Source: a virus
Taxonomy: Duplodnaviria > Heunggongvirae > Uroviricota > Caudoviricetes
DNA length: 64,000 nt
Direction: 5' to 3' (one strand)
Virus record (IMG/VR): IMGVR_UViG_3300044984_001938
Each line of letters starts with the position of its first letter. Position 1 is the first letter of the stretch. Both the position numbers and the translations under genes were made by a program. Below, piece by piece: positions 439 through 34,263 of the stretch. The notes under the pieces are model-generated. The model made no database searches. It was given only the letters and a program-made list of their open reading frames with translations, and was not told the DNA's origin.

Positions 439-1023
439 TTATTGAAAGATTTCCGGGTGATCTTTGCCAAATACTTTCATATATTTTCCGGCACTCATAT
501 CAGCTAGCATTTCAATTGGACTACCTGGGTAACTATCACCTGGTTTAATCATATCCAATTCACCTTGACGGACATGAGTAAGTTCATGCAGGACCGTACG
601 CATAATATCAACCATATTACGATTAGCAACATATACCCAAACATTATTATCATTTGTACTATGGCGACCAGTATGATGACCTTCTTGTGCTTCTTCAGTA
701 TCGTAGCTGAATTCAATTTCGGGTACTGATTGTAGATTAAGTTTTTGTGCTGCAAATTGAATGAATTTCTGCATTATTGGGTTATCTGCTAAAAAGTCTG
801 GTTCGTCATTTTCTTCATCTAGCTTGCCCTTAACCCAGTTATCCGGTGATCGTTTGAATTTCCGCACAAATAGGTCATGTAGTGCTTTGCTAGTAATACT
901 ATGTCTACTAGCAACTTGACGCATTAATTTGTCAATCGTTGTGTAGTCATGTTTTTGCAATGACGGCAAGCGTTTTGCCAATTCATTTGTAGCGGATTCA
1001 ATAATAATGTGTTCAGTGAGCAT
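439..1023 (-). CDS. Zincin-like metallopeptidase domain protein with probable capsid-targeting N-terminus
   Basis: HExxH motif (VLHELTHVRQ) plus downstream E (SPIEMLAD); N-terminus MLTEHIIIE; GATAAATA box directly upstream. Confidence 0.55.
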   Translation of the reverse strand: MLTEHIIIESATNELAKRLPSLQKHDYTTIDKLMRQVASRHSITSKALHDLFVRKFKRSPDNWVKGKLDEENDEPDFLADNPIMQKFIQFAAQKLNLQSVPEIEFSYDTEEAQEGHHTGRHSTNDNNVWVYVANRNMVDIMRTVLHELTHVRQGELDMIKPGDSYPGSPIEMLADMSAGKYMKVFGKDHPEIFQ

Positions 1024-1040
1024 TATGTATTTATCAAAAG

Positions 1041-1119
1041 GTGCTCACTTTAACGAACTAAATGGGTAGCGATTCCTATTCGTTGGCCAGCAGCCGGCCA
1101 CACGGCCCTAAGGGTGTTC
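1041..1119 (-). ncRNA. Candidate small structured RNA element
   Basis: GC-rich intergenic stretch with three stems: ACAC/GUGU, GGCCG/UGGCC, AACGAA/UUCGUU. Confidence 0.4.
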
Positions 1120-1572
1120 TTACCAAGAACTTTCTTTAAGTTCTAGTGTATATTTATCAAATCGTTTTAATCTGGCCAAGAATTCATTAGATTCTTCTGT
1201 TGATATTCCAGTAAGTTGTAATATAATTCTGTCACTATTTCCTGCGTTTGCACTAGCATAAGAAGTATTATGCCAATCAATTCCATACACTTCCCCTGCT
1301 TTCCAGTTGGTATGATTAACATCATCAAAGCAATAAAAATGCCCTGGTACCCAATCTGTTAAATGAATACAGATTCTTTTAACAGTGAAAGGTTGATCCA
1401 AATTATAATGTTCTAAATTATCTTTAATAAAAGTAGAGACTTGATTTGGCTTTTGTCTATCTAAATTAATATTGCAATTTCTAAGTTTGATTAGATTGCT
1501 TAGTTGTTGAAGTAAAGTATCATTGATATTACTCCAATCACCGATAAATGTACCTAATTTTGTGATGTTCAT
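1120..1572 (-). CDS. Cupin / aspartyl-asparaginyl beta-hydroxylase-like protein (possibly degenerate)
   Basis: C-terminal pattern RICIHLTDWVPGHF..WKAGEVY..W..ASANAG..RIILQLTG resembles phage double-stranded beta-helix oxygenases; metal-binding His residues not obvious. Confidence 0.4.
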   Translation of the reverse strand: MNITKLGTFIGDWSNINDTLLQQLSNLIKLRNCNINLDRQKPNQVSTFIKDNLEHYNLDQPFTVKRICIHLTDWVPGHFYCFDDVNHTNWKAGEVYGIDWHNTSYASANAGNSDRIILQLTGISTEESNEFLARLKRFDKYTLELKESSW

Positions 1573-1612
1573 ACTGATATTTAGTGTGAACTATTAATGT
1601 TAATATTAAACC

Positions 1613-2053
1613 TTAATTACACCAACTAGTTTTAGCTTCACCATAGTATTCTCGGGCAAAACCTTGACTAATTAACATTTGTCTAAGACTTTGTCCATTT
1701 AATATTACATCACCCAACACACGCCCGCCATACTTGTCCCAATCCATGAGAACAATTTGTCTTTTAGTTGCTACTTCAATTGCATGTTTAGTGAAGGCAG
1801 TTGCTGCTTGACCTCGTTGCTCCTCACTAGGACATTTTGCCCTGAAACCTTTTTCCGGTGTATCAACACCAAACACACGAATACTTAATTCTTTCTTTAA
1901 TGGATCAGGTAAGAACGGTGCGTGAAAGGCTACCGTATCACCATCAATAACCCTAGTTATTACAGCATCATATGTTACACCTTCTTTTTGTTTTTGTGCT
2001 AATACAACACTAGATAGTATTGTCAATGCTAATAATATTATTATTTTTTTCAT
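1613..2053 (-). CDS. Thermonuclease (SNase-like) with signal peptide
   Basis: VIDGDT, IRVFGVDTPE, DKYGGRVLG motifs; N-terminal MKKIIILLALTILSSVVLA signal peptide. Confidence 0.9.
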   Translation of the reverse strand: MKKIIILLALTILSSVVLAQKQKEGVTYDAVITRVIDGDTVAFHAPFLPDPLKKELSIRVFGVDTPEKGFRAKCPSEEQRGQAATAFTKHAIEVATKRQIVLMDWDKYGGRVLGDVILNGQSLRQMLISQGFAREYYGEAKTSWCN

Positions 2054-3426
2054 GTTGATTTAATGCGTTTCTTGTAATCTATAAAGTTTGCGTGTCTATC
2101 TTCTAATCCTGATAGTGAAGAATTAATTTTCTTAGTAACTGCGGCAGTATCATCAAAGTTATTTATCCCCGGTTTAACTCTTGTGTTCCAATACCACAGT
2201 GCTACCTTTAACGCTATGTCAGGCCTTGCTGCAAGTTCAGGTTGTTTGAGTAAGTTTATCTTCAAGGCGTCACCTGCCATACGATAGTTGTCACGACCGG
2301 TCAATTGAATATATCCTCTGCCGTGATATCTAGCACCATCTCCCACTTGTTTATTACCAAGTATCTTAGCAGTTCTGGGTGAATGTTTAACATCGTATTT
2401 TTTAGCAAAATAATCTTTTACCTTTGGTTGTGGCTTTTCTTGTAACCTACTAAAATTCCAAGTTTCATGTTTCGTCTGAGCTAAAAATTGTGCTAATTCT
2501 GATCCCTTCATTCCTTCTTTTTTTGCAGTTTGATATAAAACATTTTCTGCTTGTGTATCTACTGTGGGAGATGCTGCTTTAACTACGGGTGTTGCTGCTT
2601 TAACTTGTACTTCAGGAGCAGCATCGGGTTGAGTTATTTTAGATATTTTAGCTGTTCTAACTGGTTCTACCGGAGAATTATATTGATTAGCAGCACCTAA
2701 TGCTCCCAATGCCATAGCACCACCAGCGACCCAGTTCTTCCAATCTTCTTCTAAATCATCTAGTTCAACTAATTGTCTATATGGCTCATCACCGGTCCAT
2801 CTTGAACCCTGATCCATTGCTTCGCCGACTGCTGGATCCCACTTCATGCTCTTACTACCCTTGTGTATAGGAGCGAAGCCTTGCCCCTTGTAGAACTTTG
2901 TTAGTTTACTTTGACTTACTTGACCGTGTTGCCAAGGGAACAATGTTAGTGCAATTCCATCTGCTTGTGCCATGGCTTGCAATTCTTTCATTGCGCGTGA
3001 GCCGACCCCTTGACGTAGTGGATATGCTTGAAACCATTTTACTTCTACTGCACCTCGTTTGCTGAAACTTGGGGTTAGTTCAAACATTGCAAGCTGCTGA
3101 GTGTCACCTTCGCCCCACATCATTACATGATTATTTTTAAAGATAGTTGGATACTTTTGATAGACCTTTTCAATCCAAGCCTTTGCGGCATCGTTGTTGC
3201 TTATTTTGATTGGTTCATCTTCCTTCATTAATTTACTAATGCGAGGCTTGAATAACTGTACTTCACCTTTGTTAGTTTTTAGTACAGGTTGATTGTGCTT
3301 GTCTTTAGTAAAGCCTTTAATCTCTGCTGGACTATTCTTAAATTTACCCTTGAGGATTTTATCACCAACTGATAACTTGGGCGGTTGATATGAGGCAGTC
3401 TCATTAATAAATTCAATTGCTCTCAT
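2050..3426 (-). CDS. Multi-domain virion cargo protein: GNAT-like domain plus C-terminal GH19 chitinase/lysozyme
   Basis: RQGVGSRAM and LTKFYKGQGF (GNAT motifs A/B); HET...E and YHGRGYIQLTGRDNY (GH19); N-terminus MRAIEFINE. Confidence 0.75.
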   Translation of the reverse strand: MRAIEFINETASYQPPKLSVGDKILKGKFKNSPAEIKGFTKDKHNQPVLKTNKGEVQLFKPRISKLMKEDEPIKISNNDAAKAWIEKVYQKYPTIFKNNHVMMWGEGDTQQLAMFELTPSFSKRGAVEVKWFQAYPLRQGVGSRAMKELQAMAQADGIALTLFPWQHGQVSQSKLTKFYKGQGFAPIHKGSKSMKWDPAVGEAMDQGSRWTGDEPYRQLVELDDLEEDWKNWVAGGAMALGALGAANQYNSPVEPVRTAKISKITQPDAAPEVQVKAATPVVKAASPTVDTQAENVLYQTAKKEGMKGSELAQFLAQTKHETWNFSRLQEKPQPKVKDYFAKKYDVKHSPRTAKILGNKQVGDGARYHGRGYIQLTGRDNYRMAGDALKINLLKQPELAARPDIALKVALWYWNTRVKPGINNFDDTAAVTKKINSSLSGLEDRHANFIDYKKRIKST

Positions 3427-3866
3427 TACTCACGGGCTTTTTTAAGTGTAGCACGAATCATCCATGCTTTCTTGGCATATAAGTCTTGTAGTTCAGCTAG
3501 ATAATTGGCAATTCCCTGTGCTTTTTCTTCTGTTGCAATGTCAAATAATTCAGTTACTAACTTAATCATTTTTTCACAATCAACTAGTAGTTCTTCAAGC
3601 ATTAATTCAGCACGAGGAATTTTATGTTGTTCTTCAATGATACTCAATTCAAGCATTCTGCCTAAGCTGCCTGGAGAATAACTGCCTAAAGTTCTGATAT
3701 ATTCGGCAATAGTATCAATAGTTCCATAGATTTCATCATACATTTTATTTAAAAATTTATGATATTGCGGGAAATTGCTTCCTTCGATATTCCAGTGAAA
3801 TCCGTGAGTTTTTGTATACAGTACAAATGTACTGCCCAATAGTGTTTTTAAGTTATCTGATAACAT
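3426..3866 (-). CDS. dps: Dps / ferritin-like DNA-binding protein
   Basis: HGFHWNIEG..F..YH and D.IAEYIRTLG Dps signatures; 146 aa. Confidence 0.9.
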   Translation of the reverse strand: MLSDNLKTLLGSTFVLYTKTHGFHWNIEGSNFPQYHKFLNKMYDEIYGTIDTIAEYIRTLGSYSPGSLGRMLELSIIEEQHKIPRAELMLEELLVDCEKMIKLVTELFDIATEEKAQGIANYLAELQDLYAKKAWMIRATLKKARE

Positions 3867-3868
3867 TA

Positions 3869-5020
3869 TTATCCTTTAGTTTTCTTTGTGTTGACATTGA
3901 TGGCTTTACCACTACGCTCTGGATTGGGATCTTCTCTGCGTTTTCTTGCTGCTGCACTTGCACGACCCTTTTTACCTAAACTGTGTGCTTTACTTTGAGG
4001 CAAACATTTTGGTTTACCTTCTCCCGGCTCTCTTGCACATGGACCCTTGATATTACCTTTGGTATCCATGCGAACCCACTTTTCTTTATTAAACCAATCA
4101 TGTAAACTTTCATCCGTTTGATTTATGCCTTCTAGTATAGAACTTTCATTCTTACTACTATTACCCCAATTACTTGCACCTTTTTTACGACATTTGACTA
4201 ATGCACCGCTAGCATAGGCACTTGGCCATACTTTATAACGGCTTTTTACTTTATAGTAGCAAGCATCTTTCTTTTCATTCATTATCATTTCACTGAACAT
4301 TGGTCCATTACAGTGTGGGCAACTATGTTGTTCCTCCGCCACACCTTGTTCTTTTTGACCTTGCTGTTGCGCCCATTGAGCAATTTTTCCAAAGAGTGTA
4401 TCAGGAACACCGAGGTCTGTAGCAGCCTTTGGATCGCTAATATCAACTACGTTAATAGTTCTATCAGCAAGTGGACCGCTTGATTGAATAGGGCCACCTG
4501 ATGCAATCGTTGCGGCACCTGTGTATTTTTTTTCTGGATCATTTAGTCTTTGATCTAATCCCAATTGTTTAGCAACATTAGGAGCCACTGGTTTTATGTC
4601 AATAAATGATGCTGAGTTACTTGCAGTAGATAAATTTTGGTTGCGGCGCCAACTGGCTGCAACGTATGTGCCATTGGCTAATCTAACATAAGTGGTCACT
4701 GGAGCAAAGATATCTAATTCATTTAACTTGTCCTCCGACACACCTTGTTCGGTTGTTAGTGTACCAGTGCGTCTTTGTCCGGAACCTTTGAACATATCAT
4801 TTGTTTCTTCATATGTTCCTGGATAAGGTATACCAACTGATTCTTTCTTAACATCATTTGCAAATTGTTTATTAGTTGCTTTTACAATGCCACTAAAACG
4901 CTTGTTGCCACGAGCAAAATCTTTTTCTTTATCTGCTTTACTGGCATCGGCTGCGGCAGCAGTTTTGTATTGTGCTAACTTTTCGTTAGATAGTTCTGTT
5001 AAAAAATCTGATGGTTTCAT
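3869..5020 (-). CDS. Modular internal-head polyprotein (small basic modules separated by EQGV[AS]E sites)
   Basis: N-terminus MKPSDFLTE; EQGVSE and EQGVAE linkers; KKDACYYKVKSRYKVWPSAYASGALVKCRKKG and LHDWFNKEKWV..KPKCLP small modules. Confidence 0.6.
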   Translation of the reverse strand: MKPSDFLTELSNEKLAQYKTAAAADASKADKEKDFARGNKRFSGIVKATNKQFANDVKKESVGIPYPGTYEETNDMFKGSGQRRTGTLTTEQGVSEDKLNELDIFAPVTTYVRLANGTYVAASWRRNQNLSTASNSASFIDIKPVAPNVAKQLGLDQRLNDPEKKYTGAATIASGGPIQSSGPLADRTINVVDISDPKAATDLGVPDTLFGKIAQWAQQQGQKEQGVAEEQHSCPHCNGPMFSEMIMNEKKDACYYKVKSRYKVWPSAYASGALVKCRKKGASNWGNSSKNESSILEGINQTDESLHDWFNKEKWVRMDTKGNIKGPCAREPGEGKPKCLPQSKAHSLGKKGRASAAARKRREDPNPERSGKAINVNTKKTKG

Positions 5021-6936
5021 ATTATTTCTTATTCTTGTTATCTAACATGCCGCGTTTGTTAGCAGTTGCCCAAGCAATGTTCTTAGCGACTTTCTTTGAC
5101 TTGCCTGCCTTTTCTTCACTCTTTTCAATATGACTAACCATACGATCTACTTTGGCACCTTCACTAACTTTTTTCTTAGCAGCATCCCATGCAGCATCAG
5201 TCTTTACATTGTATTCTTTACCACCGGCGCCAATATCAGCAATTTCGTCCTTGTCGAAATTTGGATATCTGGACCAGCGGGTGGAAGGTGTGTATCCTTT
5301 ACGGCATAATTTCATCTCTGCGTTAGCTTGTTTGTCTGACATATAGGGACTTGGAGAGCTGCCTTCCGCCACATCTTTCTCTGGTTCTGTTGGTTTGGGT
5401 TTCTTTCTGGGACTATCTAACCAAGGATACTTGGAGCCTTCCGCTACATCTTGTGTTGCATACTTGGCGTACACCTTGCTATTTTCACCATAGCCATGTC
5501 TCCTAGCCATTTGTTGTAATTGCGCTTGGGTCTTGCCTTTGAAGTATTCTTTCTTTTCAGCATCGGTCATCAGGCGAATTTTTTCTTTGACACGAATTAC
5601 TGATGCTGGCATAGCACCTTCTGCTATATTTTTATCTTGTAACCGTTTTTCTGCACGATTCAATCCAACACTTCTCATTGAAAATTTATGACCTGCTTTA
5701 TTTGCAGATTTTGGGTCATTGTCTCTTATACCTTTACCAATAGTGGTAAATTGTTTATCTTGATCTTTCTCCGCTTTGTCATAGTAAGAAGTAACAGTGT
5801 CTCTATTCAATTCATCTAACTGGCCTTCTGACACACCTTGCTCCGGAGGTATAAAGTCTTCCAAATCCATACTAGAAAATCCTATAAAATCGTTTTGACT
5901 TCCGTGTGCCGCATTTTGTTTAATTTCTTGTACATACCGATCGGCACCTTCTGACAGATCACCGGCATCAAGTCCATCAATTGGATACATTACATATTGT
6001 TTATCTCCACGATGAAACGACACTGCATAGGAGTTACTGTCGGCCACGGCATAAATTTCAATAATGTATTTTCCGTCGTCGCTTTCAAAGTCTTCCTGAA
6101 AGAAAAATCTATCTCCCTGACCGTCTTTACGCTCAGGTGGTGCTAACTCGTTCAATCCTTTCGAGCCTTTCGCCACACCTTGCTCATTAAATCTTGTATC
6201 ATGTTTCATTGCAAGTGCATCATTTGTCCGCGGATCGTCAATGAACTTTAATTCGTAATCAGGATGCTTCATTATCTGTTGATTGATATCATATGCTTTA
6301 GTGTGATGCTGCTGAGCCTTTTCTTTGTTACCTCTCTTTAGATATGTTCTTGACAAGTAAGTGTGATGTTGATATTTTGATTTCAAATCATCTAATGATT
6401 CATTAAAGCCTTCCGCCACACCTTGCTCTGTATGACTTAAAATATTATTTTTAGGAACACGATATTTTGCCACAGTCTTTTCGGTGTTTCTTGGGCTTGG
6501 ATCAACTGATTTAACAATAAGATGCCCGTCTTTCCAACCAACTATGGTGCCTTCAATTTCAGGATAATGATTGCTGTGATACCAAGTAATCTTATCACCG
6601 GGATCGTAACCTTCCGCCACATCTTTCTCTGGTTCTGGTTTCTTTCTGGGACTATCTAACCAAGGATACTTGGAGCCTTCTGACACACCTTTCTCTGGTT
6701 CTGTTGGTTTGGGGTTGGGGTTCTTTCTGGGATTATCTAACCAAGGATACTTGGAGCCTTCCTCCACATCTTTTGGTGTTACTCTATCGATACCTTTTTC
6801 TCTCCGTGAAATCATGCGTTGAGCAATGTCTTTATATTCACCTTTTTTAGCATCTGGGGTAAGTCCTTTAACTTGTGCTTTTGCTTTTTCTAAATAACTT
6901 GCTTTAGTAGCATCACTAACCTCCGCGACACCTTGC
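4332..6936 (-). repeat. Dispersed ~20-nt in-frame repeat, minus-strand consensus GAGCAAGGTGTGGCGGAAGG
   Basis: Plus-strand copies start near 4333, 4732, 5362, 5437, 5824, 6166, 6409, 6610, 6676, 6757 and 6920 (e.g. ccttccgccacaccttgctc at 6409-6428). Confidence 0.85.
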
Positions 6937-7391
6937 ATCTCTTGGCTGCTGATTAGATAATCCATAACACTAACCATCATGCTTTTTGCTGCGCCAATCT
7001 TCTCTGATACCCACTCTGGGAATTCAGATTGAACAGATAATCTCTCGTCTAAATCACTGGCAGCACGGGCGATAGTGTGTAAACTGTTCTTTAATGTGTG
7101 GCCTTCATGTTCACCTTGATCTAAATCATGTTTAACAAATCCGGTTCTTTTTAATCTGCCTTGTCCAGGAACAACAATTAAGTCTTGTTCTGAAAGATCA
7201 TCTTCAGTGACTTTGCTTTCTACAATGCTATTAGCGTAAGGACCTTTCTTTTTAGATTTGCCCTTTATTAATTGTTGTACTGGTTTTAGTCCACGAACAT
7301 TAGTATTTTCGCGGGTTTGAGTCATCATAGGCTGTGCTACGGTGGCAACCGATCCTGCTGTTGTATTTTCTACTATTTGATTAAATCTCAT
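5022..7391 (-). CDS. Cassette-type polyprotein, about 13 modules joined by (EQG/EKD/EKG)V[AS]E-G linkers
   Basis: N-terminus MRFNQIVE; at least 11 recurrences of the V/I-x-E linker; three copies of the GSKYPWLDxPRK module. Confidence 0.65.
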   Translation of the reverse strand: MRFNQIVENTTAGSVATVAQPMMTQTRENTNVRGLKPVQQLIKGKSKKKGPYANSIVESKVTEDDLSEQDLIVVPGQGRLKRTGFVKHDLDQGEHEGHTLKNSLHTIARAASDLDERLSVQSEFPEWVSEKIGAAKSMMVSVMDYLISSQEMQGVAEVSDATKASYLEKAKAQVKGLTPDAKKGEYKDIAQRMISRREKGIDRVTPKDVEEGSKYPWLDNPRKNPNPKPTEPEKGVSEGSKYPWLDSPRKKPEPEKDVAEGYDPGDKITWYHSNHYPEIEGTIVGWKDGHLIVKSVDPSPRNTEKTVAKYRVPKNNILSHTEQGVAEGFNESLDDLKSKYQHHTYLSRTYLKRGNKEKAQQHHTKAYDINQQIMKHPDYELKFIDDPRTNDALAMKHDTRFNEQGVAKGSKGLNELAPPERKDGQGDRFFFQEDFESDDGKYIIEIYAVADSNSYAVSFHRGDKQYVMYPIDGLDAGDLSEGADRYVQEIKQNAAHGSQNDFIGFSSMDLEDFIPPEQGVSEGQLDELNRDTVTSYYDKAEKDQDKQFTTIGKGIRDNDPKSANKAGHKFSMRSVGLNRAEKRLQDKNIAEGAMPASVIRVKEKIRLMTDAEKKEYFKGKTQAQLQQMARRHGYGENSKVYAKYATQDVAEGSKYPWLDSPRKKPKPTEPEKDVAEGSSPSPYMSDKQANAEMKLCRKGYTPSTRWSRYPNFDKDEIADIGAGGKEYNVKTDAAWDAAKKKVSEGAKVDRMVSHIEKSEEKAGKSKKVAKNIAWATANKRGMLDNKNKK

Positions 7392-7443
7392 GCTGGTTTC
7401 CCAAAGTTATAGAGTATTTATCAAAATACCATAATATGGAAAC

Positions 7444-8769
7444 TTAAGAGATTTTTCCGTTTGTAGGGGCAGTTTTTGGTACACCGCTTCTTTTTATTTT
7501 ACCTAACCCTAGTCTCGTAGAGTTGTCCTGAATGCTATACGGATTCACATCCACGGTTAGTGCGGTCTTAAATCGTGGATCATTTTTTTCTGACTCGGAA
7601 GGAATGTAACCACTTGCTTCACTTATTCCACCACGATATTGATTGTCTTTACGCCCACCGTATGGATTTATTGCTGAAGTCTTTTCACTGGCAAATTGCA
7701 TAGTGTAATTTTCACCGACATTATATGTAGGATCAACTTTCTGTCTAGGCATACCTTTAGGTTGTTTTGGATCAACTGGATCAATATCTGTTGTTGTTAA
7801 TCCAGTCTTTTTTAGTGCATCAATATACTTATGTTCTTCATCTTCACTTCCAAACGCCAGTATGGTACTAGGTGGTCCTTTACCAAAATCATGCTTTCCT
7901 AATCCTTTAAGATTGCTAATATGTTGACCTAACTTATACCAATCATATACATCACTAACATCTACTTTAACAGTACCTGCGGGCATCGTTGGTTTAAACT
8001 CTGGTCCAGGAGGAGGACCATTTGGATCATAATCTTCGTCTGTGACATTACGATACATAGTTTCAAACGATAACTTCTCACTATGTAACTTGTTTCTTAA
8101 ATCATACAACTTTGTAATATATCCCTGGCTACGCAACATCTTAAATGCTAAATTCTCAGGTGAAAATTCACCCCCTTTATCTAACCCTGCTTGTCTATAT
8201 CTTTTGATTGTATCTAATATATGTTTTACTCTGCTGTACTTTCTTGATTTGAGGGCAATCTCCATTACAGCTAATAACTTTTCATACTTACTTTTAGTGG
8301 CAGTTTGGTCAAAATCACTTCTACGCTTAGTGGGTATTCTTATCCACTGGTCATTAATTATACTATATTCACCTAAACTTACTACAGGTTCTCTACTGTC
8401 TTGTACATACAATTCTACTGGAATTTTATGAATTGTTATATCATGGGAATCATTGTAAATTGTTTTCTTTGCATTGAATAACTCTTTATATACTTCATCT
8501 ATAGGCAAATTGCCCATGTCTACTAATATATGCAAATCTAAATCACTGTGCTTTGTGTAACTAAATGCAGCATTACTGCCTGATATGGTGATGTCTTTTA
8601 CATCTAAATCATGTACCCCTAATTCCGATAAAAAGTCTTGTGCTATCTTTATAAGTTGTTCTCTAACTTCTGACCGTAGTTTAGTACCGTTCCATAACTT
8701 TGGATTAAGTTTGTCGTGGAATGTAACTGCATCACTTAGTTTAAAACTGTTTAATTCTTTTAGGTTCAT
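7444..8769 (-). CDS. Pol beta-superfamily nucleotidyltransferase with C-terminal small modules
   Basis: ISGSNAAFSYTKHSDLDLHILVD (GS..DxD) and third acidic strand VELYVQD. Confidence 0.75.
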   Translation of the reverse strand: MNLKELNSFKLSDAVTFHDKLNPKLWNGTKLRSEVREQLIKIAQDFLSELGVHDLDVKDITISGSNAAFSYTKHSDLDLHILVDMGNLPIDEVYKELFNAKKTIYNDSHDITIHKIPVELYVQDSREPVVSLGEYSIINDQWIRIPTKRRSDFDQTATKSKYEKLLAVMEIALKSRKYSRVKHILDTIKRYRQAGLDKGGEFSPENLAFKMLRSQGYITKLYDLRNKLHSEKLSFETMYRNVTDEDYDPNGPPPGPEFKPTMPAGTVKVDVSDVYDWYKLGQHISNLKGLGKHDFGKGPPSTILAFGSEDEEHKYIDALKKTGLTTTDIDPVDPKQPKGMPRQKVDPTYNVGENYTMQFASEKTSAINPYGGRKDNQYRGGISEASGYIPSESEKNDPRFKTALTVDVNPYSIQDNSTRLGLGKIKRSGVPKTAPTNGKIS

Positions 8770-8781
8770 TAGTTATTTATC

Positions 8782-8803
8782 AAAAAAAAGCCCCTTTCGG
8801 GGC
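8782..8803 (-). terminator. Rho-independent terminator
   Basis: GCCCC-GAAA-GGGGC followed by U8 on the minus strand. Confidence 0.85.
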
Positions 8804-8807
8804 CTTC

Positions 8808-9737
8808 TTATGCTGCTTTAATTGATTTGACTTCGTTGCCGTCTTTGTCAACTAGTTTCAATCCCAGACTTTGTTGTCTTTCCATGAACATTGGTCCAAC
8901 TGTGTTAATTAGATGTTCTTGATTTTCCTGACAGAACACATAACTACCTGAATGACGCAATAGAACACGCTTATCCACCCAAATCTTACCACCGATATCC
9001 CGCCAGTTTTCACAGAAAGTCCAATCTTCGCTATAGTAACGATTCTGACGCACCGCAGTGTCAAAATATGTTTTCAAGTGTTGATCATACTTTGGATCTA
9101 ATCCAATGTCATTCTTGTATTGCTTGACTGCTGGATGAGATTTCAATTTCTCAAATACATGTTTCTTCATTAGTAAGAAGCCAGTGCCTGCTTTAGATAC
9201 TTCTTGTAATCCGTCTGTTCCTTCTTCAGCACCGTCAAATCCGTTAACTACCCACTTGATAGGCATAGTCTTCATGGGATACAATCCACCGATAACATCT
9301 ACATCCCGATTTAACAATACCAACAAATGCCATGGTTCCCAACCAATGTCAGCATCAACAAAGAATAAGTGTGTTGCGTCAGGCATGTCTAAGAACTTAG
9401 CAGTTAGTGTATTACGGGCACGACTGATTAGTGATTCGTTGACCATTGTTTCCAATGTCCAGTCAATGTTTAATTGACGGGCGGTGTTAGCCCACTTGAT
9501 GAAACTCATAAATGTTGATTCAGTCAACATACCTCCATAGCAAGGCATAGAAATATGCACTTTGGTTGTACGCAGAAAGTCTACATTAACTTGTACTTGT
9601 CCTGCAGCGGGTGCTTCAGCAGGAGCATCTGCTGCTTTTTCTGCTTGTTCCTCTGCTGCTTGTGCAGCAATTTCTTGTACCATTTCTACTGGTACTGATT
9701 TTTCTTCTGCTGCTTCTTTGGGTTTTCTTGTTGCCAT
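8808..9737 (-). CDS. GT-A fold (family 2-like) glycosyltransferase
   Basis: VHISMPCYGG, ESLISRARN, LFFVDADIGW (DxD), GTGFLL, SEDWTFC motifs; Ala/Glu-rich N-terminal extension. Confidence 0.75.
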   Translation of the reverse strand: MATRKPKEAAEEKSVPVEMVQEIAAQAAEEQAEKAADAPAEAPAAGQVQVNVDFLRTTKVHISMPCYGGMLTESTFMSFIKWANTARQLNIDWTLETMVNESLISRARNTLTAKFLDMPDATHLFFVDADIGWEPWHLLVLLNRDVDVIGGLYPMKTMPIKWVVNGFDGAEEGTDGLQEVSKAGTGFLLMKKHVFEKLKSHPAVKQYKNDIGLDPKYDQHLKTYFDTAVRQNRYYSEDWTFCENWRDIGGKIWVDKRVLLRHSGSYVFCQENQEHLINTVGPMFMERQQSLGLKLVDKDGNEVKSIKAA

Positions 9738-9793
9738 AAGGTCCTCTTAAATGATGTAATTATTTACATCAGGCAGAGGGGTACGAAATATTT

Positions 9794-12700
9794 TTATTTT
9801 TCGTCTAGATAATCAAATTTAGGAGCTTGCGGACGACCATAATCTTGTTCACGTTTTTTCATCCGTTCTTGATCTCTTGCTGCTCTTAGTTTGGCAATAG
9901 GTGCACCTTTGATTAAGGCGTTTGCCATATGAGCCATCACCTCTTCTTCTTCTATAGGTTCAATGGTAGCACCCATCTCATCTAGATGTTGTTTTGCTTC
10001 TAACAATTGATTGTATATTTTAACTTTCTGAATAGGAGTAGCATACTCAAGCATTGGCTTAATCTTTTTAATATACTCTTTAATAGCTTGCGGTTGATTG
10101 TTTGAATATTTTGCAGTAGTATCCATTAAATGCTTTATCCACGCTACTCCTAGCTTTTGTGAATCAAATGCCTGCATCCAAACGTTTAATTTGTCTTGTT
10201 CACTTGCATTAGGATTTTTTAAGATATCACGCAATTGAGTAAAACTTATTCCAGTTCCACCTTTTTCAGGATCACGCTCTGTACCAATTGTTTGAAATTC
10301 AACTTGATTTTGTGTCCCACCATACTTGGCTAATGCAACTGGATCTTTCATGCGCTTTTCTAAACTATTTAACCACGACTCTGTACTGTCTTTTCTATCC
10401 GCACCTACTACAACTATAATTTTATTGTATTTACTATTAGCCGGAAGAACAAGTTCTTTTTCAATCTTCTTCATTGCAGTTCCGCCTGCATCCCAAACTT
10501 GAATGTTGTTTGCATATTGTGGATACAACTTCTGCAATGTTTTAACTTTGTCTGCTGGTGGAATAGGATCATCTGGACCAACAACTGGACTTACATATAT
10601 GAATGGTACTCCACCCACTTGTTTTGCTATAGCAATTGTTTCATCAATTAACTGTTCATGTCCTTTATGACCCACAAATGAACCATAAGTGATTACTGCG
10701 GTGGTTGTGCGATTTCCACCTTCAGTTGGCTTCTTGTTCATGGCTTGTTTGTCAGCCATCTTTTGCTGCATGTCAGGACTTGTTACTTTAGCAAGAGTAC
10801 CGCTTGGCATATTAATAACAAGACCTTCAATCATATCACCAAGTTGATCTTTCCCTGGTATAGGACTGTTAATAATCACCTTGCTTAATGCTTGTCTTGC
10901 AGCAGATAATATTGCTTTTGCTTTTTGTTTGTCAGGTGAATCCCCTCTCTGAGACACCGCATTCAATAATGCTGCTGAGTTCTTTACGATAGGATTAACA
11001 ATTTTACTAACATCAATGCCTTTATGGCTCAATGTATTATTAATCATTTTGATATCAGGGGTGCTATCTTTAATTAATGCTTCTTTAATCTCATCAGCAT
11101 CAGGACTTTGTTCACCCGTACTGTATTGCTTAACAGTAATTGGAACAAGAGTCATTACCTTACCTAATTTCTTAGGATCATATGGGATGTTAACAAACTT
11201 AAAACCACCACTATCTTGTTGTGCCATTGGATTGAATAACATTTCAGCATTGACAATTGTATCAGGTGGAATATCTTTCATAAATTTAGCATTAACAATT
11301 ATACTTAATACTTTATCATAATTTTGTGTTCTTGTCAGTTGCTCATCAGATTGACCTTGACTTCTTCCATACTTCTCAAAATCACCAATGTTGGCTTTAG
11401 TCATGGGAGTTTCAACTCTACTAGTCATAAAGAATGGTTCACCATTTTGTGTTCTGCCAAATCTTATGCCAGCACCATCTACTTTCAAGTTAATAGGAAC
11501 ATTTGCAAAATTGCCACCATCTTGTGCTATCTCTTTACAAAAATTGATAAAATCTGCATCCTTCATCTCAGTAGATGAACCAGGATTGTATATATGTTGA
11601 ATACCCTTACGCTTATAGCTAGGAACTGCTTCGGCTAATGTATTCTTTGCCATTGATTTTACAACATCGGCATCAGCTCCTGCTTTTTCTTCAGCACCAG
11701 CTGATGTATATTTGAATGATTTACGGTATGCAGCAAGTAGTTGGTCTAATTCAGCGGACTTAGATAGTTTTAATGTGTCTAGTAAGGTGTTGATCGCTAC
11801 CATTTTCTCTGCAATATCTTTATCAGGGTTATTTTTGTACATACCCTGTGCACCTGGCCCTATTGTCTTTTGCAAGAACCCCTGCATTACTTGTTCTTTT
11901 TCTTCAGGACTCATCAAAGAATTCATTACTTGTAATAAGCCAGTGAATGACCAGAATTGTTTTTGCAATGCTTTTGCTTGTTTAGGATTTAATCGTTGGT
12001 CTAAAATCGTTGAAAAGATTTGTCCAATGTCTTGATTATATCCTGATGTAGGTGCTTCCCGCATTACAGGTAAACCTTTACTAACTAACGGTTTTCCATT
12101 ATCATCTAATACCGGTTCATACTTTGCTCGTAGTCCGCCACCTTCTTTGCTAGATACTGCAAAAGAATACATGTTATCTGTGGTAGGAACATCTTGTTCT
12201 TGTCTTAATTTACCTCTACCAACCAATTTTCGTAATATGAAGTCTTTGCGAGTTAGTGCTGTAAATGCTTGTATCAACCATTTATGGAATACACCTTTAA
12301 CTCCTGCTTGCAAATCCTCCCATGCGCTACTATGACTAAATCTAGCCCAATCAGTTGGATTGTCTTTTTCAAATTCTACAAATTCAAAATCAATCTGTAC
12401 TTTAACAGGTGGGTCTTGCAATTCAAACAATCCAGAGAATTGTTCATTGCCTCTTTGAAATCCTAAAAATGTCGCAGCACCTATTTGTTTGTTAGTGTAT
12501 GCTGTCAAGAATTGTTGTAAGTTAGGTTCTTTTGTTTTGTCAACCATGGTGTCAATATCACCAACAGTTGGTTTCTTTTCTGTAAATACCTCATCAGAGA
12601 TACCCTTAACATTAAAGAAATGCAATGAACTTCCACTTAAGAACTTACCACTTGTTAAGAGTTCATTACTCCATAATCCTTGCTTATACATTTTAAAATA

Positions 12701-12859
12701 AGCAGAATTAATTGCGTAAAGTAGTTCATTTAATTTAGGAACCATGTAACTACGCTTAGTTACCTTTAAATCTAAATGCTGTGCTTCTTTTCCGTTAATA
12801 GATAGATTGCCACCTTCGTCTAGGTGTGTACGACCTTCAAGTAGGGCACTGATTTTCAT
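9794..12859 (-). CDS. Large multi-domain protein: pol beta-like NTase + RNA-ligase-like + HxGH cytidylyltransferase-like domains
   Basis: LSGSS...GDID..VQIDF; LKVDG...AEMLF...EGLVI..AKV; GHKGH...VVGADR...ISFTQLR; N-terminus MKISALLE. Confidence 0.65.
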   Translation of the reverse strand: MKISALLEGRTHLDEGGNLSINGKEAQHLDLKVTKRSYMVPKLNELLYAINSAYFKMYKQGLWSNELLTSGKFLSGSSLHFFNVKGISDEVFTEKKPTVGDIDTMVDKTKEPNLQQFLTAYTNKQIGAATFLGFQRGNEQFSGLFELQDPPVKVQIDFEFVEFEKDNPTDWARFSHSSAWEDLQAGVKGVFHKWLIQAFTALTRKDFILRKLVGRGKLRQEQDVPTTDNMYSFAVSSKEGGGLRAKYEPVLDDNGKPLVSKGLPVMREAPTSGYNQDIGQIFSTILDQRLNPKQAKALQKQFWSFTGLLQVMNSLMSPEEKEQVMQGFLQKTIGPGAQGMYKNNPDKDIAEKMVAINTLLDTLKLSKSAELDQLLAAYRKSFKYTSAGAEEKAGADADVVKSMAKNTLAEAVPSYKRKGIQHIYNPGSSTEMKDADFINFCKEIAQDGGNFANVPINLKVDGAGIRFGRTQNGEPFFMTSRVETPMTKANIGDFEKYGRSQGQSDEQLTRTQNYDKVLSIIVNAKFMKDIPPDTIVNAEMLFNPMAQQDSGGFKFVNIPYDPKKLGKVMTLVPITVKQYSTGEQSPDADEIKEALIKDSTPDIKMINNTLSHKGIDVSKIVNPIVKNSAALLNAVSQRGDSPDKQKAKAILSAARQALSKVIINSPIPGKDQLGDMIEGLVINMPSGTLAKVTSPDMQQKMADKQAMNKKPTEGGNRTTTAVITYGSFVGHKGHEQLIDETIAIAKQVGGVPFIYVSPVVGPDDPIPPADKVKTLQKLYPQYANNIQVWDAGGTAMKKIEKELVLPANSKYNKIIVVVGADRKDSTESWLNSLEKRMKDPVALAKYGGTQNQVEFQTIGTERDPEKGGTGISFTQLRDILKNPNASEQDKLNVWMQAFDSQKLGVAWIKHLMDTTAKYSNNQPQAIKEYIKKIKPMLEYATPIQKVKIYNQLLEAKQHLDEMGATIEPIEEEEVMAHMANALIKGAPIAKLRAARDQERMKKREQDYGRPQAPKFDYLDEK

Positions 12860-13389
12860 TATTTACCCGGTGGGTTATATGTTTGTTCGTATTCTACTTT
12901 AGCAATACGATAGTAGTTATCACCGTCTTTGACTAGGTAATCCCCTGGCTTTAATACCATTTGCTCACCCCATGACGCAGTAAATGTGATTGGTTGTTGA
13001 CCAGTATACAATGCTACCATTCTAGGACCCTGTTCGGGCACAACAACTTCACCTAGTTTACCTTGATATAATTTAGGAAATTTTGCTGACTTAACAACAT
13101 AATTTTCTCTGCTTGGGCCAGACATAATTATATCATTTGGTTCAGCAACATTTTGTGTTTCTTTACCATCACTAGTAATAGTAACAACTGGCATTTGTTG
13201 TGTTGCTACAGTATATGTCATTGCTGGCATCTTACCTGGCATACCACCATCTACATATTTGTATTGTTTTGGTTGCTTATGTGTAGGTAAGAATTCCATA
13301 CCTGCTGCTATTTGTTGTATGTCAGCAGGGCCACCTTCTTGTGCCTCATTTATCATATCAATATATTTTCTAAAAAGTGCTGTACTCAT
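12859..13389 (-). CDS. PGDYG-like protein
   Basis: WGEQMVLKPGDYLVKDG motif; N-terminus MSTALFRKYIDMINE. Confidence 0.55.
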   Translation of the reverse strand: MSTALFRKYIDMINEAQEGGPADIQQIAAGMEFLPTHKQPKQYKYVDGGMPGKMPAMTYTVATQQMPVVTITSDGKETQNVAEPNDIIMSGPSRENYVVKSAKFPKLYQGKLGEVVVPEQGPRMVALYTGQQPITFTASWGEQMVLKPGDYLVKDGDNYYRIAKVEYEQTYNPPGK

Positions 13390-14692: not shown

Positions 14693-16954
14693 TTAGTTAA
14701 CAATAATTAATCCATTGTCATCAACCATTGCTGTTAGTTTGTGTGTTACTACAAAATCAATTGCTCCGGCTGACATTACAACATTGATTGTTGCAGATTT
14801 AATGCGCTCAAACAAGACTTTCTTACTTAGAGGTACCCGAATCAATTCATCAATCTTACGACTTAATGGTCGTGCGCCCATTTTCTTATCATATCCTTGC
14901 TCTGCTAAGTATTCTACCACTGGCTCACTTAGATTCATTACAATTTCATGTTTGTCTAACAAACTCTTTTTCAAGTCATCGGTAAACTTGATAACAATCT
15001 TCTTAATAGCAAGTGTATCCAACTTGTTAAACTTGCAAATCAAATCAACACGATTACGGAACTCAGGCTTGAAGAATTCTTTCAATGCTTTGTCATCTTC
15101 ACCGGTCTTTTCTTGTGTGCCAAATCCAATGTTGTTGCGTTCGCTATCACTAGAACCCAAGTTACTAGTCATAATGATAATACTGTTTTTACAGTTAACT
15201 TGCTTGCCATTACTACCGGTAAGATGCCCTTCATCTAACATCTGTAGAAAGATATTAAAGATTTCTGGATGTGCTTTTTCAACCTCATCAAATAGCATAA
15301 TACTATGTGGGTTCTTGCTCAAGTCATTAATCAATCTACCACCCGACACTTGACTATCACCGAATCCAACATAGCCCGGAGGAGGTCCAATCAAACTTGA
15401 AACACTATGCTTCTCTGAATACTCACTCATGTCATACTTAAGTAGCGGCATATCCAAGTTCTTGCTAAGTAGTTTGGCAAATTCTGTTTTACCAGTTCCA
15501 GTAGGGCCTAAGAATAAGAAACTACCTGTTGGTTTACTATCATTACCAATACCAGCAAAGTTAACATAAATTCGTTCAAGTACTTTTTGTACAGTTTCAT
15601 CTTGACCATATAGTTTGTCCTTGATATTTGATTCTAAATTATGAATCAAATCAAAGTTGTCACCCTTCATCTTGTCAGCAGGGACTCCGGTGAATCGTTC
15701 AACTTGATCAAATACAAGGTCTTTGGTAATGATTGCCCCTTTGTTCTCTGCTACTCGTTGTTTAGCGCAAGCAGCATCAAGTAAATCAATAGATTTGTCT
15801 GGGTTCTTTCGGTCATGAATATACCGATCAGCACTTTCAACTGCTGCTTTGATTGCCTCATCTGTAATTTCAACATTGTGAAAATCATTAAGTCTAGCAC
15901 TTAATCCATTCAATATACGAATAGTTGTGTCGTGATTAGGTTCATCAACTGACACACGATAGAATCTACGCATCAATGCACGGTCCTTTTCAAAACTTTC
16001 GTAGTATTCTTCCCAAGTTGTGCTAGCAATAACTTTAAGAGTACCTTTAGTAATTGCGGGTTTAATCATGTTACTGAAGTCCACTGAACCAGTAGATGAA
16101 CCCCCTGAACCCTGCATAGTATGTGCCTCGTCAATGAAAAGGATAGTCTTTTTCTTTGTGTTTAACGCATCCAGTACTGCTTTGACTTTTTCTTCAAAGT
16201 CCCCGCGATATTTACTTCCTGCAAGCAATGAGCCAATCTCCAAGCTATATATTTGATGATCATGCAAGAATTCAGGTACTTCTTTGTTGATCATCATCTG
16301 TGCTAGACCTTCGGCGATTGCTGTTTTACCAACCCCAGGGTCACCTACCATCAATACATTACTCTTGAATCGTTTAGCAAGTACATTAATGATATCGTCA
16401 AGTTCTTTGCCGCGACCAATCATTGGTTCAAGTTTACCTTGTGCCGCTAATTGTGTTAAGTTGATGGTATATTCTTCTAGAATTTCGTCGGCTTGATTCT
16501 CGGTGAGATTACCCACTTCGTTGTGCTTATAATTTTTCTGCCAATGTGCTACAAATTCATTTTTGTTGATTCCGTATTTCAACAAGAAATAATGAGCATG
16601 ACTATTCCCTTCTGCCGCAATGCTAAGATACAAGTCAATAGTTGTTACTTGCCTACGACCGGTGAATAACACTTGTGTTACAGAACGATTCATAACTCGT
16701 TCTAAACTATTTGTTTTACGAGGTACTACTTCATCCTCTTTGCTTACAATGGCATGTAAACTGTCTAAGTATGCCTTAATCTCTTGATCCATTGTTTCAA
16801 TATCTGCACCAAAACTATGCAAGCATTTTTTGAATGCACTGTGATTTATCAAACCAAGAAGTAAATGTTCTACGGTTACATATTGATGTTTTCTTTCTTT
16901 AGCATGATGAATCGCTTGTTCAATAATGCTATCAATTTCGGGTGAATGGTTCAT
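14693..16954 (-). CDS. clpA: ClpA-type AAA+ chaperone / protease ATP-binding subunit
   Basis: Clp N-domain (HQYVTVEHLLLGL), Walker A GDPGVGKT and GPTGTGKT, Walker B IDEAH and FDEVEKAHP, IGF loop (NNIGFG); no ClpB middle coiled coil. Confidence 0.9.
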   Translation of the reverse strand: MNHSPEIDSIIEQAIHHAKERKHQYVTVEHLLLGLINHSAFKKCLHSFGADIETMDQEIKAYLDSLHAIVSKEDEVVPRKTNSLERVMNRSVTQVLFTGRRQVTTIDLYLSIAAEGNSHAHYFLLKYGINKNEFVAHWQKNYKHNEVGNLTENQADEILEEYTINLTQLAAQGKLEPMIGRGKELDDIINVLAKRFKSNVLMVGDPGVGKTAIAEGLAQMMINKEVPEFLHDHQIYSLEIGSLLAGSKYRGDFEEKVKAVLDALNTKKKTILFIDEAHTMQGSGGSSTGSVDFSNMIKPAITKGTLKVIASTTWEEYYESFEKDRALMRRFYRVSVDEPNHDTTIRILNGLSARLNDFHNVEITDEAIKAAVESADRYIHDRKNPDKSIDLLDAACAKQRVAENKGAIITKDLVFDQVERFTGVPADKMKGDNFDLIHNLESNIKDKLYGQDETVQKVLERIYVNFAGIGNDSKPTGSFLFLGPTGTGKTEFAKLLSKNLDMPLLKYDMSEYSEKHSVSSLIGPPPGYVGFGDSQVSGGRLINDLSKNPHSIMLFDEVEKAHPEIFNIFLQMLDEGHLTGSNGKQVNCKNSIIIMTSNLGSSDSERNNIGFGTQEKTGEDDKALKEFFKPEFRNRVDLICKFNKLDTLAIKKIVIKFTDDLKKSLLDKHEIVMNLSEPVVEYLAEQGYDKKMGARPLSRKIDELIRVPLSKKVLFERIKSATINVVMSAGAIDFVVTHKLTAMVDDNGLIIVN

Positions 16955-17766
16955 GCTTGATTCCTTTGTTGTTTATAAGCCGTAATGCTATTGATAACTT
17001 GTTCTCCTATTATATCAGGGATGAATGCTTTTAACAATATAATTTGGTCACCGTAGCTAGTAGCATTTAGTATAGGCATGCCTTGTCCCGCTAATTTTAA
17101 TTGAATATAGGGTTGAGTTTTAGGTTTAATTGTTACATCCAGCGTTTTTCCTGATAGAGTAACAAATTCAAAACTTGTGCCAATAATCAAATCTAACACG
17201 GAAATTGGATGGTTGCAAATTAAATCATTACCTTGTCTATCATATTTGAGATGGGGTTCAACCCGAAAATCTACTATTAAACTAGCACCATCTATGACTT
17301 TATCTATACGCATTTGATTATCATTTTGAATCCCTTTAGGAATCTGAATGGTTATGGCATGTACATTCGTGGGTGTTTGTAGTTTTAATATTTGTTCACC
17401 GCCGTTATATGCTTGTTCTAATGATATATTTATTGTTGTTCTAAATAATTGTTGTTGAGGTTGTTGTTGTCTACGTTGTTGACTGAATATGTCAAAAGGA
17501 TTATTTTGACCAAACATTTGACCAAATATATGTTCAAACCCTGGGGGTATTCCACCTTGCTGCGGAAATCCTTGTGGCATGGGATTATCATATTGCTGGC
17601 GTTTATTTGCATCACTTAATGTTTCATACGCAGCTTGTGTTTCCTGAAATTTGACTTTATCCCCTCCCTTATCGGGATGATGCTGACTAGCCAATCTTCG
17701 CCAGGCCCCTTTGATATCCTCTTGTGAGGCGGTTTTAGTAACACCTAAAATTTCATAATAATCCAT
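16951..17766 (-). CDS. dnaJ: DnaJ/CbpA-like co-chaperone (no zinc finger)
   Basis: MDYYEILGV...HHPDKGG J-domain with HPD; DnaJ C-terminal domain. Confidence 0.9.
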   Translation of the reverse strand: MDYYEILGVTKTASQEDIKGAWRRLASQHHPDKGGDKVKFQETQAAYETLSDANKRQQYDNPMPQGFPQQGGIPPGFEHIFGQMFGQNNPFDIFSQQRRQQQPQQQLFRTTINISLEQAYNGGEQILKLQTPTNVHAITIQIPKGIQNDNQMRIDKVIDGASLIVDFRVEPHLKYDRQGNDLICNHPISVLDLIIGTSFEFVTLSGKTLDVTIKPKTQPYIQLKLAGQGMPILNATSYGDQIILLKAFIPDIIGEQVINSITAYKQQRNQA

Positions 17767-28072: not shown

Positions 28073-28073
28073 A

Positions 28074-28694: not shown

Positions 28695-28823
28695 TTTTTT
28701 TCCTAATATGCGTATGCCTACCAGAATCTGCTTATGTCGCCGTAACCGACTACACAAGACTGTGGGGTGCTGCCCTCTGCTAGAAGGCCGAAAACCCCAC
28801 GGTTTTTGATTTCAGGTAATTTT

Positions 28824-28979: not shown

Positions 28980-29070
28980 TTATGTTTTGTTACCTAAGAT
29001 ACGCCGGATGCGACCCCAGGAATTTTACAATGTTGTCACATATATTTATGCCGCCGCAAATTACACATAA

Positions 29071-34263
<5,193 letters not shown>

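Follow-up and report, generated by a model that had tools for sequence, protein, structure and literature searches.

RlaP adds 1-2 nucleoside monophosphates to damaged RNA 3' ends before ligation and is required for restoring tRNA function after excessive damage (bioRxiv 10.64898/2025.12.29.696909); jumbo phages commonly pair RlaP with Rnl (PMC7824862). Among the packaged proteins of phage T4, the first 10 residues of IPIII, its capsid-targeting sequence (CTS), suffice for packaging, and gp21 cuts after L/I-X-E, as was first seen at a Glu-Ala bond (PMC9026906); Alt is trimmed at ITE-6 and LTE-619 and loses 63 C-terminal residues (PMC5694885). A survey of polyvalent proteins (Iyer et al. 2017, PMC5512222) found no RNA-ligase association. 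Here we describe a 1021-residue open reading frame (ORF), the target, which lies on the minus strand of the IMG/VR virus record IMGVR_UViG_3300044984_001938 (Caudoviricetes); the window is the whole 64,000-nucleotide stretch of that record that was analysed. The target joins a Pol-beta-type (N), an RNA-ligase-type (middle, M) and a HIGH-type (C) nucleotidyltransferase domain. We put at roughly 45% the probability that it is a packaged, processed precursor whose enzymes extend and seal broken ends, RNA being slightly favoured over DNA; sequence comparison argues for the delivery, and predicted folds together with precedent for the enzymatic action.

Three nucleotidyltransferase-type domains in one reading frame

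The target and its parts are as follows.

9794..12859, minus strand: the target ORF, 1021 residues, a single frame running from 12859 down to 9794
12815..12859, minus strand: leader, residues 1-15 (MKISALLEGRTHLDE), a putative propeptide of capsid-targeting type with L-x-E sites LLE-8 and LDE-15
11630..12814, minus strand: N domain, residues 16-410, predicted Pol-beta-superfamily nucleotidyltransferase (phrog_19290), ending at TLAE-410 before an A
10745..11629, minus strand: middle domain, residues 411-705, predicted RNA-ligase-type covalent nucleotidyltransferase with motifs I, III, IIIa, IV and V
10100..10744, minus strand: C domain, residues 706-920, predicted HIGH-superfamily nucleotidyltransferase (GHKGH, VGADR, GISFTQLR)
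9977..10099, minus strand: linker, residues 921-961, ending AKQHLDE-961, past which cassettes are inserted in relatives
9797..9976, minus strand: C-terminal tail, residues 962-1021, ending DYLDEK, possibly a C-terminal propeptide or docking peptide

The window comes from a large myovirus: genes for the sheath, tube and fibre of the tail and for the virion are found in it, mainly on the minus strand, and the target sits in a late, structural-gene-rich stretch of that same strand. No near-identical DNA was found among 50,697 cultured phage records, and the whole protein gave no usable match to Pfam, NCBIfam or PDB sequences. A search of 5.8 billion proteins returned 437 relatives, and the 120 of these that were listed have a common core of around 950 residues and lengths from 892 to 1688 amino acids. 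A scan of viral contigs gave 203 relatives, 80 of which are covered by the locus comparisons. Catalytic residues were aligned in 52-58 diverse relatives of 40-85% identity (n=53 for N, n=58 for the middle domain and n=52 for C).

A sequence-only reading of the window had described the ORF as a combination of three unrelated nucleotidyl-transfer chemistries. This observation is real: the motifs on which it was based are all present in the target where they had been placed, the catalytic positions of the three different folds are invariant in the aligned relatives, and a check of the N and middle domains by AlphaFold and Foldseek took the N domain to the Pol-beta superfamily, with middling scores, and the middle domain to ligases.

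The middle domain contains LKVDG (458-462; K459 is motif I), AEM (538-540; E539, motif III), FVNIPYD (555-561; motif IIIa), IEGLVI (677-682; E678-G679, motif IV) and KVTS (691-694; K691, motif V), and K459, D461, G462, E539, F555, V556, I558, Y560, E678, G679 and K691 are invariant in the 58 sequences. Its AlphaFold model has a mean predicted local distance difference test score (pLDDT) of 93.6, and all 26 of the Foldseek matches at E<=0.001 are RNA or DNA ligases, with T4 Rnl1 leading. When structures were aligned with VIA-align, the Naegleria RNA ligase (NgrRnl) scored highest (Z 11.3 over 188 residues, root-mean-square deviation (rmsd) 3.3), followed by T4 Rnl2 and Rnl1 (both 9.7), REL1 (9.6) and DNA ligases (around 8.3). 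A helical insert of around 100 residues lies between motifs IIIa and IV, and there is no oligonucleotide-binding (OB) domain. On the strength of the model, the middle domain is an RNA-ligase-type fold and a predicted nucleotidyltransferase. Sequence models did not detect it: no Pfam RNA-ligase model matched the target protein, its profile returned only noise from PDB sequences, and PF09414 (Rnl2) matched nothing in five related phage records containing the target gene; PF09511 (Rnl1) also gave no match in these five records, but its control matched in no genome and the search is therefore uninformative. The middle-domain profile, run against 1.84 billion representatives, retrieved 297 proteins; the 144 that were new (P0122-P0265) include stand-alone middle domains of around 300 amino acids, M-C and N-M fusions, and one tandem of M with DUF6267.

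In the N domain, FLSGSS (73-78), VGDIDT (99-104) and QIDFEF (155-160) supply G76, S77, D101, D103, D157 and E159, all invariant in the 53 sequences; the spacing from GS to DxD is long, at 23 residues. The sole match of the domain is phrog_19290, a family without assigned function; no Pfam family matches any of the 53 members, and a profile search of PDB sequences gave only noise. The fold neighbours of the AlphaFold model (pLDDT 90.5) are nearly all Pol-beta-superfamily enzymes at middling scores. They comprise TUT7 (VIA-align Z 8.2, 100 residues, rmsd 2.8), Trf4 (7.5) and GLD-2 (7.4), the Pol X enzymes Pol beta (7.2, 193 residues), TdT (7.1) and Pol mu (6.9), and more weakly CD-NTases and OAS (Z 5.5-7.0). 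The best Foldseek match is Pol beta (E 4e-3, probability 0.99), and outside its own family the ESM Atlas offered DUF6267 (template-modelling (TM) score 0.48) and bacterial Pol X (TM 0.38). From the modelled fold, the N domain is a new family of the Pol-beta superfamily, and is not RlaP.

Several narrower readings of the N domain found no support. PF10127 (RlaP) matches neither the 53 members nor the five related phage records, while T4 NrdC.11 aligned by hhalign with a probability of 0.2%. The family X polymerase models PF14792 and PF14791 match none of the 53 members, so that the likeness is at the level of fold only, and hhalign gave no support to DUF6267 as a homologue of the N domain. A QueE-like radical-SAM gene adjoins the target homologue of Campylobacter phage CP220, which we take to be a deazaguanine phage; a link between the N family and 7-deazaguanine DNA was not supported, as PF01702 (TGT/DpdA) matched nothing in ten phage records including CP220, although this model probably misses phage DpdA.

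The C domain is marked by GHKGH (730-734), VVGADR (817-822) and GISFTQLR (870-877). H731, G733, H734, D821 and R877 are invariant in the 52 sequences, and S872 and T874 nearly so. Its profile matches RibF, an FMN adenylyltransferase, at the HxGH region (E 1e-5) and the phrog "cytidyltransferase" families (5e-16), and aligns over the whole length with the stand-alone, PF01467-positive cytidyltransferase of Synechococcus phage S-H9-1 (hhalign probability 98%, E 8e-14). None of the 52 members matches PF01467 (CTP_transf_like) directly, and FAD_syn gives below-cut-off matches in 51 of them. By sequence comparison this is a predicted HIGH-type nucleotidyltransferase, homologous to the phage "cytidyltransferases". 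The NAD-restoring, NMNAT-like role once suggested for the ORF found no specific support, the best sequence matches being RibF and generic CTP_transf_like.

The order N-M-C is identical in every full-length ORF of the 80 viral loci, and order and adjacency are also kept where the ORF is split. Locus L033 has N separate from a joined M and C, L099 has three separate genes, and L100 has an N-like gene followed by separate M and C genes. Furthermore, Xanthomonas phage BUDD and Stenotrophomonas phage Mendera possess an overlapping four-gene operon, N-X-M-C, adjoining primase/helicase genes.

L097:2998-6347: N-X-M-C operon of phage BUDD
L098:2998-6115: N-X-M-C operon of phage Mendera

In these operons N starts MGGN, the middle-domain profile recognises the M genes with a probability of 97.7% (E 1.5e-12), and the C genes are PF01467-positive. 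Searches with the X genes (333 amino acids in BUDD and 314 in Mendera) matched nothing; phrog_12709 unites X and M as one family of 552 positions. The ligase-type and HIGH-type parts, fused here, are adjacent genes in all the split forms examined; within the reading favoured here, the two are obligate partners.

A comparable arrangement is seen with DUF6267 (PF19782), a family of over 6000 clusters from marine T4-like phages that is located in the gp32-UvsX-gp41 replication module. Its members (L091:2287-4073 in Synechococcus phage S-H9-1; also L095, L096 and A5) carry the invariant motifs KWDG, QGD, F.P..I.Y, EGYVA and K.LV, and because of KWDG...EGYVA...K they appear to be of ligase type rather than homologues of the N domain. 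In cyanophage-type contigs a CTP_transf_like gene follows DUF6267 directly, often overlapping it. The alignment with the middle domain is weak, over motif I (hhalign probability 6%), and a literature search found no mention of DUF6267. Its motifs make DUF6267 a candidate for an overlooked ligase that works alongside a HIGH-type enzyme.

Leader, cleavage-type sites and the variable tail

The leader contains two L-x-E sites, MKISALLE-8 and HLDE-15, and is followed by an invariant GGN. At the junction of residues 15 and 16, E is followed by G in 108 of 118 relatives, with a hydrophobic residue at P3 in 106. Leaderless homologues, from Vibrio phage phiKT1024, BUDD, Mendera and several metagenomic forms, start exactly at M-GGN, whereas CP220 gp100 has the leader MKLSELMFILE before its GGN. 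A nine-member subgroup (P0091, P0093-P0095, P0097, P0099, P0101, P0106 and P0121) bears an N-terminal module of 120 residues with an HExxH motif (LAHELVHAKQ); it precedes the same E/GGN junction and resembles a zincin-like peptidase cassette.

A second cleavage-type site lies at the border between N and the middle domain. Here E410-A411 with a hydrophobic P3 is kept in 120 of 121 relatives, within a linker that is variable in length and sequence, of low pLDDT, and disordered. The border between M and C has no conserved cleavage-type site across the relatives, which fits the natural split of N from M plus C. At the third site, homology among relatives breaks just past an L-x-E (AKxxLxE) at around residue 961. 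Leaders are also found on the split genes of L100, where M begins MLTFKTFLGE before a D and C begins MNSFKQYLQE before a Q. Within the island 439-13389, 6 of 11 ORFs have leader-type starts, compared with 7 of 44 elsewhere in the window (p 0.014). A Peptidase_S77 (gp21-type) gene is present in three of five related giant-phage records, including a 331-kb record that is 93% complete.

Taken at the level of sequence, the target thus probably resembles a T4-style capsid cargo precursor. Virion delivery, part of the sequence-only reading, has gained comparative support from the leader, the L/I/V-x-E sites at the borders, the M-GGN starts and the gp21-type protease of relatives; its notion of one protein probably does not hold after maturation, since a conserved cleavage-type site parts N from middle-plus-C.

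Past residue 961 the relatives carry cassettes of 0 to around 800 residues. Most of 121 relatives (around 80 by tally) nevertheless end D-Y-[LIV]-x-E-K at the extreme C-terminus regardless of the cassettes before it, and the target is the one ORF of the window with this ending, which in the related loci was found on target homologues alone. Our guess is that the tail is a docking or tethering propeptide. Pfam domains of the longer relatives, presumably located in the cassettes, include dCMP deaminase, Zeta toxin/AAA_33 kinase, Pol-beta nucleotidyltransferase, ParB, HD/SpoT-type hydrolase, Amidoligase_2 and LysM-SLT.

Among the recurring cassettes, a SpoT-type HD domain (AHDTEQGQ.YG..PY..HP...LLHDVLEDT) is the most frequent; it is carried by P0003, P0044-P0049, P0064, P0085, P0091, P0093, P0097, P0100 and P0103 and could act as an alarmone hydrolase or as a phosphoesterase that heals RNA ends. 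One recurring unannotated cassette opens with a signal of twin-arginine (Tat) type (RRGFLRGAGAAA), and C-terminal cassettes of P0004, P0007, P0008 and P0017 have at their start, right behind an x-x-E site, a twin-arginine signal-like stretch (SRRGFLRGAGAAAALGATALG). The position of these stretches hints at a released module that would be exported to the host periplasm after injection.

Possible substrates of the putatively packaged enzymes

How would such a precursor work? The T4-type leader would take it into the prohead core, where a gp21-type prohead protease would cut after the glutamates of the exposed junctions E15-G16, E410-A411 and around E961. The predicted products are a Pol-beta-type N protein of around 395 residues, an M-C protein of around 550 residues with the ligase-type and HIGH-type enzymes, and a short C-terminal peptide, at the position where relatives would carry exchangeable effector cassettes. 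Ejected with the DNA, the enzymes would be active before any phage protein synthesis. N would extend a damaged 3'-OH end by one or a few nucleotides and M would seal the 3'-OH/5'-phosphate break via lysyl-AMP at K459, by the logic of RlaP plus RNA ligase. The HIGH domain may produce an adenylylated cofactor or intermediate, or regenerate one. The favoured substrate would be host or phage RNA, for example tRNA cut by defence nucleases; here a pre-made repair enzyme would pay, because a phage with cut tRNAs cannot translate one.

Of the functions put forward from the sequence alone, RNA repair is still the leading one, and no sign was seen of tRNA CCA addition, AMPylation or CD-NTase signalling. 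Rnl5, Rnl2, Rnl1 and REL1 are the closest folds to the ligase domain (Z 9.6-11.3, as against around 8.3 for DNA ligases), which is without an OB domain, the N core is nearest to terminal uridylyl and adenylyl transferases, and the related phages encode a gp30-like DNA ligase of their own and gave no match to PF10127 or PF09414.

A number of observations weigh on the other side. The N domain has fold matches of middling score, with a Z of 8.2 at best and a Foldseek E no better than 4e-3, and its alignments to Pol X enzymes span twice the residues of those to RNA-specific enzymes, a difference that speaks for DNA. Most nuclease-cut RNAs would need an end-healing kinase or phosphatase, and the conserved core contains neither; in some relatives, ends could be healed by HD (PF13328/PF01966) and P-loop kinase (PF13671) cassettes. 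The role of the HIGH domain is left unexplained by RNA repair. As for packaging, the leader pattern is loose and is also fitted by 7 of 44 unrelated ORFs of the window (16%), no Peptidase_S77 gene is present within the 64-kb window, and the split operon of the cultured phages is leaderless and stands beside primase/helicase genes, so that the core function is not tied to packaging and may be DNA-related.

The most probable alternative, though on balance an unlikely one, is that the same packaged enzymes would act on the injected phage DNA, nicked or cut on entry. A Pol X-like N would fill a gap or add a ribonucleotide to a DNA 3' end, and the Rnl2/Rnl5-like ligase would then seal the 3'-ribo nick. 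Bacterial LigD uses this logic of ribonucleotide addition followed by sealing. Alignments of the N domain with Pol beta, TdT, Pol mu, Pol lambda and African swine fever virus (ASFV) Pol X take in both palm and thumb (160-195 residues), and in the Atlas its next-nearest folds are those of bacterial Pol X clusters. Genomic context also agrees with DNA as substrate: the BUDD/Mendera operon adjoins primase/helicase, DUF6267 with its ligase-type motifs lies in the gp32-UvsX-gp41 module and has a CTP_transf_like gene for a neighbour, the first gene downstream of the target is Dps-like in around 27 relatives, and cargo and DNA travel together. NgrRnl, the nearest ligase, seals duplex nicks with an RNA 3'-OH strand (PMC4408790). 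However, the ligase fold scores favour RNA ligases, the Pol X Pfam domains match none of the 53 N-domain members, the protein has no OB domain, no helix-hairpin-helix (HhH) or 8-kDa domain and no Ku-like end-bridging partner, and the phages already own a gp30-like DNA ligase.

Alternatively, the ligase-type and HIGH-type enzymes might form an obligate two-step machine of an undescribed kind, in which the HIGH enzyme would make or transfer a nucleotidyl donor or a 5'-adenylylated end for the ligase; joined by the new Pol-beta family, the pair would be a pre-loaded, injected kit with which giant phages survive nucleic-acid-cutting immunity at entry. This we regard as a long shot. The DUF6267-cytidyltransferase pair of marine T4-like phages would possibly be a parallel to M-C.

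It is still less probable that the target is an ordinary unpackaged cytoplasmic enzyme of early or middle expression, with a leader and L-x-E sites that are fortuitous or serve another purpose and tails that are fused accessory domains. The cultured-phage homologues, leaderless and among replication genes, and the occurrence of the leader pattern in 16% of the other window ORFs are as such an explanation would have it, but GGN is precisely where the leaderless forms start, the Glu-Ala site has been conserved although the disordered linker around it is hypervariable, the split genes bear their own T4-like leaders, cassettes are common to the target family and the neighbouring cargo polyproteins, and the target stands in a late, structural-gene-rich stretch of the same strand.

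The least probable explanation is small-nucleotide chemistry against NAD-depleting or signalling defences, with N as a CD-NTase-like enzyme or alarmone synthase and C as NMNAT/FMNAT: phages are known to use HIGH-type NMNATs for counter-defence (PMC7824862), FMN adenylyltransferase comes closest to the C-domain profile, CD-NTases/OAS are among the weaker N fold matches (Z 5.5-7.0) and SpoT-type HD cassettes occur in relatives, but it has no place for an intact ligase domain with all five motifs, the CD-NTase matches rank below TUTase and Pol X, nothing identifies the second substrate of the C domain, and no Nampt/NadV partner was seen in the flanks examined, where no dedicated search was made.

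Neighbouring genes and comparison with known systems

The genes around the target, some of which appear to be cargo themselves, are listed below.

3426-3866, minus strand: Dps-like gene, 146 amino acids
7444..8769, minus strand: 441-amino-acid gene (phrog_36119) with a weak Pol-beta nucleotidyltransferase signal
8808..9737, minus strand: downstream 309-amino-acid gene (phrog_1574), weak match to A197 of Sulfolobus turreted icosahedral virus (STIV; 2c0n_A, E 0.003)
12859..13389, minus strand: upstream 176-amino-acid gene whose stop overlaps the target start, with a leader of like type (MSTALFRKYIDMINE, then A)
14693-16954, minus strand: ClpB-like ATPase
16951-17766, minus strand: J-domain protein

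The overlap of the upstream stop with the target start reads TAATG. Also upstream of the target, the ClpB-like ATPase is conserved in 67 loci and the J-domain protein in 55. Directly downstream of the target, a homologue of 8808..9737 is found in 13 related loci; its product here has an acidic, Ala/Glu-rich N-terminus. STIV A197 is, we presume, a GT-A glycosyltransferase, and the label of GT-A glycosyltransferase that the sequence-only reading attached to this gene has one weak match behind it (E 0.003). The same reading took 7444..8769 for a second Pol-beta nucleotidyltransferase, for which only sub-threshold matches were obtained (NTP_transf_2, E 0.035). Two related loci have their best homologues of 7444..8769 in ORFs that are 1181 and 2073 amino acids long, and because the target homologues of these loci (L069 and L083) have exactly these lengths, it probably occurs there, on this sequence evidence, as the C-terminal cassette of the target. 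More generally, the neighbouring modules (439-1023, 3869-5020, 5022-7391 and 7444-8769) recur within long ORFs of other phages that are of the size of target homologues.

Genes 3869-5020 and 5022-7391 share a repeated in-frame joint of 20 bases, CCTTCCGCCACACCTTGCTC (window 4335-6946; QGVAE followed by G on the minus strand), which is absent from the target gene; the peptide GVAEG stands between cassettes in the tails of the target relatives P0031, P0036 and P0115. The Dps-like gene, which is directly downstream of the target homologue in around 27 related loci, is here separated from the target by four cargo genes. Farther away, a 982-amino-acid protein of the tail/virion block (window 34348-37296, minus strand) also has a leader of L-x-E type (MDFRDILKSFDNLSE, then A), and the G+C content rises to 47-53% at window 28000-34000, inside a 1725-amino-acid tail-fibre gene, from around 37% elsewhere.

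A literature search for packaged RNA-ligase or nucleotidyltransferase cargo returned nothing on the target family. What is added here is the failed RlaP membership, the internal Glu-Ala site with its predicted two-enzyme products, the argument from M-GGN mature starts, the N-X-M-C operon of cultured phages, the leader-bearing split genes, the tail kept at the C-terminus, and the finding that the C domain is a homologue of cyanophage cytidyltransferases adjoining DUF6267. Two enzyme families, one Pol-beta and one of RNA-ligase type, have been missed by current Pfam models; both are abundant in freshwater giant phages and are also found in cultured Xanthomonas phage BUDD, Stenotrophomonas phage Mendera, Campylobacter phage CP220 and Vibrio phage phiKT1024. 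The constant pairing of the ligase with a HIGH-type nucleotidyltransferase is the most intriguing feature and poses a clear biochemical question, and the variable tail is a ready catalogue of candidate injected counter-defence modules.

The systems in which RlaP (PF10127) accompanies RNA ligases (T4 NrdC.11 with Rnl1/Rnl2, and RtcB-RlaP-RtcA operons) likewise couple a Pol-beta-type enzyme to one of RNA-ligase type, and their logic of restoring lost 3' nucleotides and then sealing is the one proposed here. However, the N domain of the target is not PF10127 and its ligase lies outside the Pfam RNA-ligase models; moreover, its parts are fused, joined to a HIGH-type enzyme, and accompanied by putative capsid-targeting and cleavage signals. 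For the middle domain, the best structural matches are the Naegleria gruberi/Deinococcus Rnl5 type and T4 Rnl2 (Z 11.3 and 9.7), with motifs I, III, IIIa, IV and V conserved, but identity is around 10%, there is the helical insert of around 100 residues, and neither the N-terminal domain of Rnl5 nor the C-terminal domain of Rnl2 is present. For the C domain, homologues along the entire length are the phage "cytidyltransferase" genes (PF01467; phrog_395/3041) such as that of Synechococcus phage S-H9-1, which are stand-alone genes of 160-205 residues and also occur directly after DUF6267.

Polyvalent proteins (PMC5512222) are likewise long and multidomain, are predicted to be packaged and injected, and have exchangeable effector domains; the target differs in having a fixed three-enzyme core before its variable part, and in T4-type sites that suggest separation after packaging. 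The nearest precedents for the delivery are T4 Alt and IPI-IPIII, which also have a short N-terminal leader ending L/I-x-E and are delivered with the DNA as a diverse and fast-changing cargo set, as proposed for the target. In Alt the enzyme is placed between N- and C-terminal propeptides, of which the latter is a stretch of 63 removed residues, and the target has a tail of 60 residues after LDE-961. The target's cargo, however, would be three nucleotidyltransferases and not an ADP-ribosyltransferase or nuclease inhibitor, and it has an internal site that would split two enzymes, a processing deduced from comparison of sequences. If this reading is true, T4-style cargo, known as small inhibitors and an ADP-ribosyltransferase, would extend to a set of nucleic-acid-mending enzymes delivered before expression begins.

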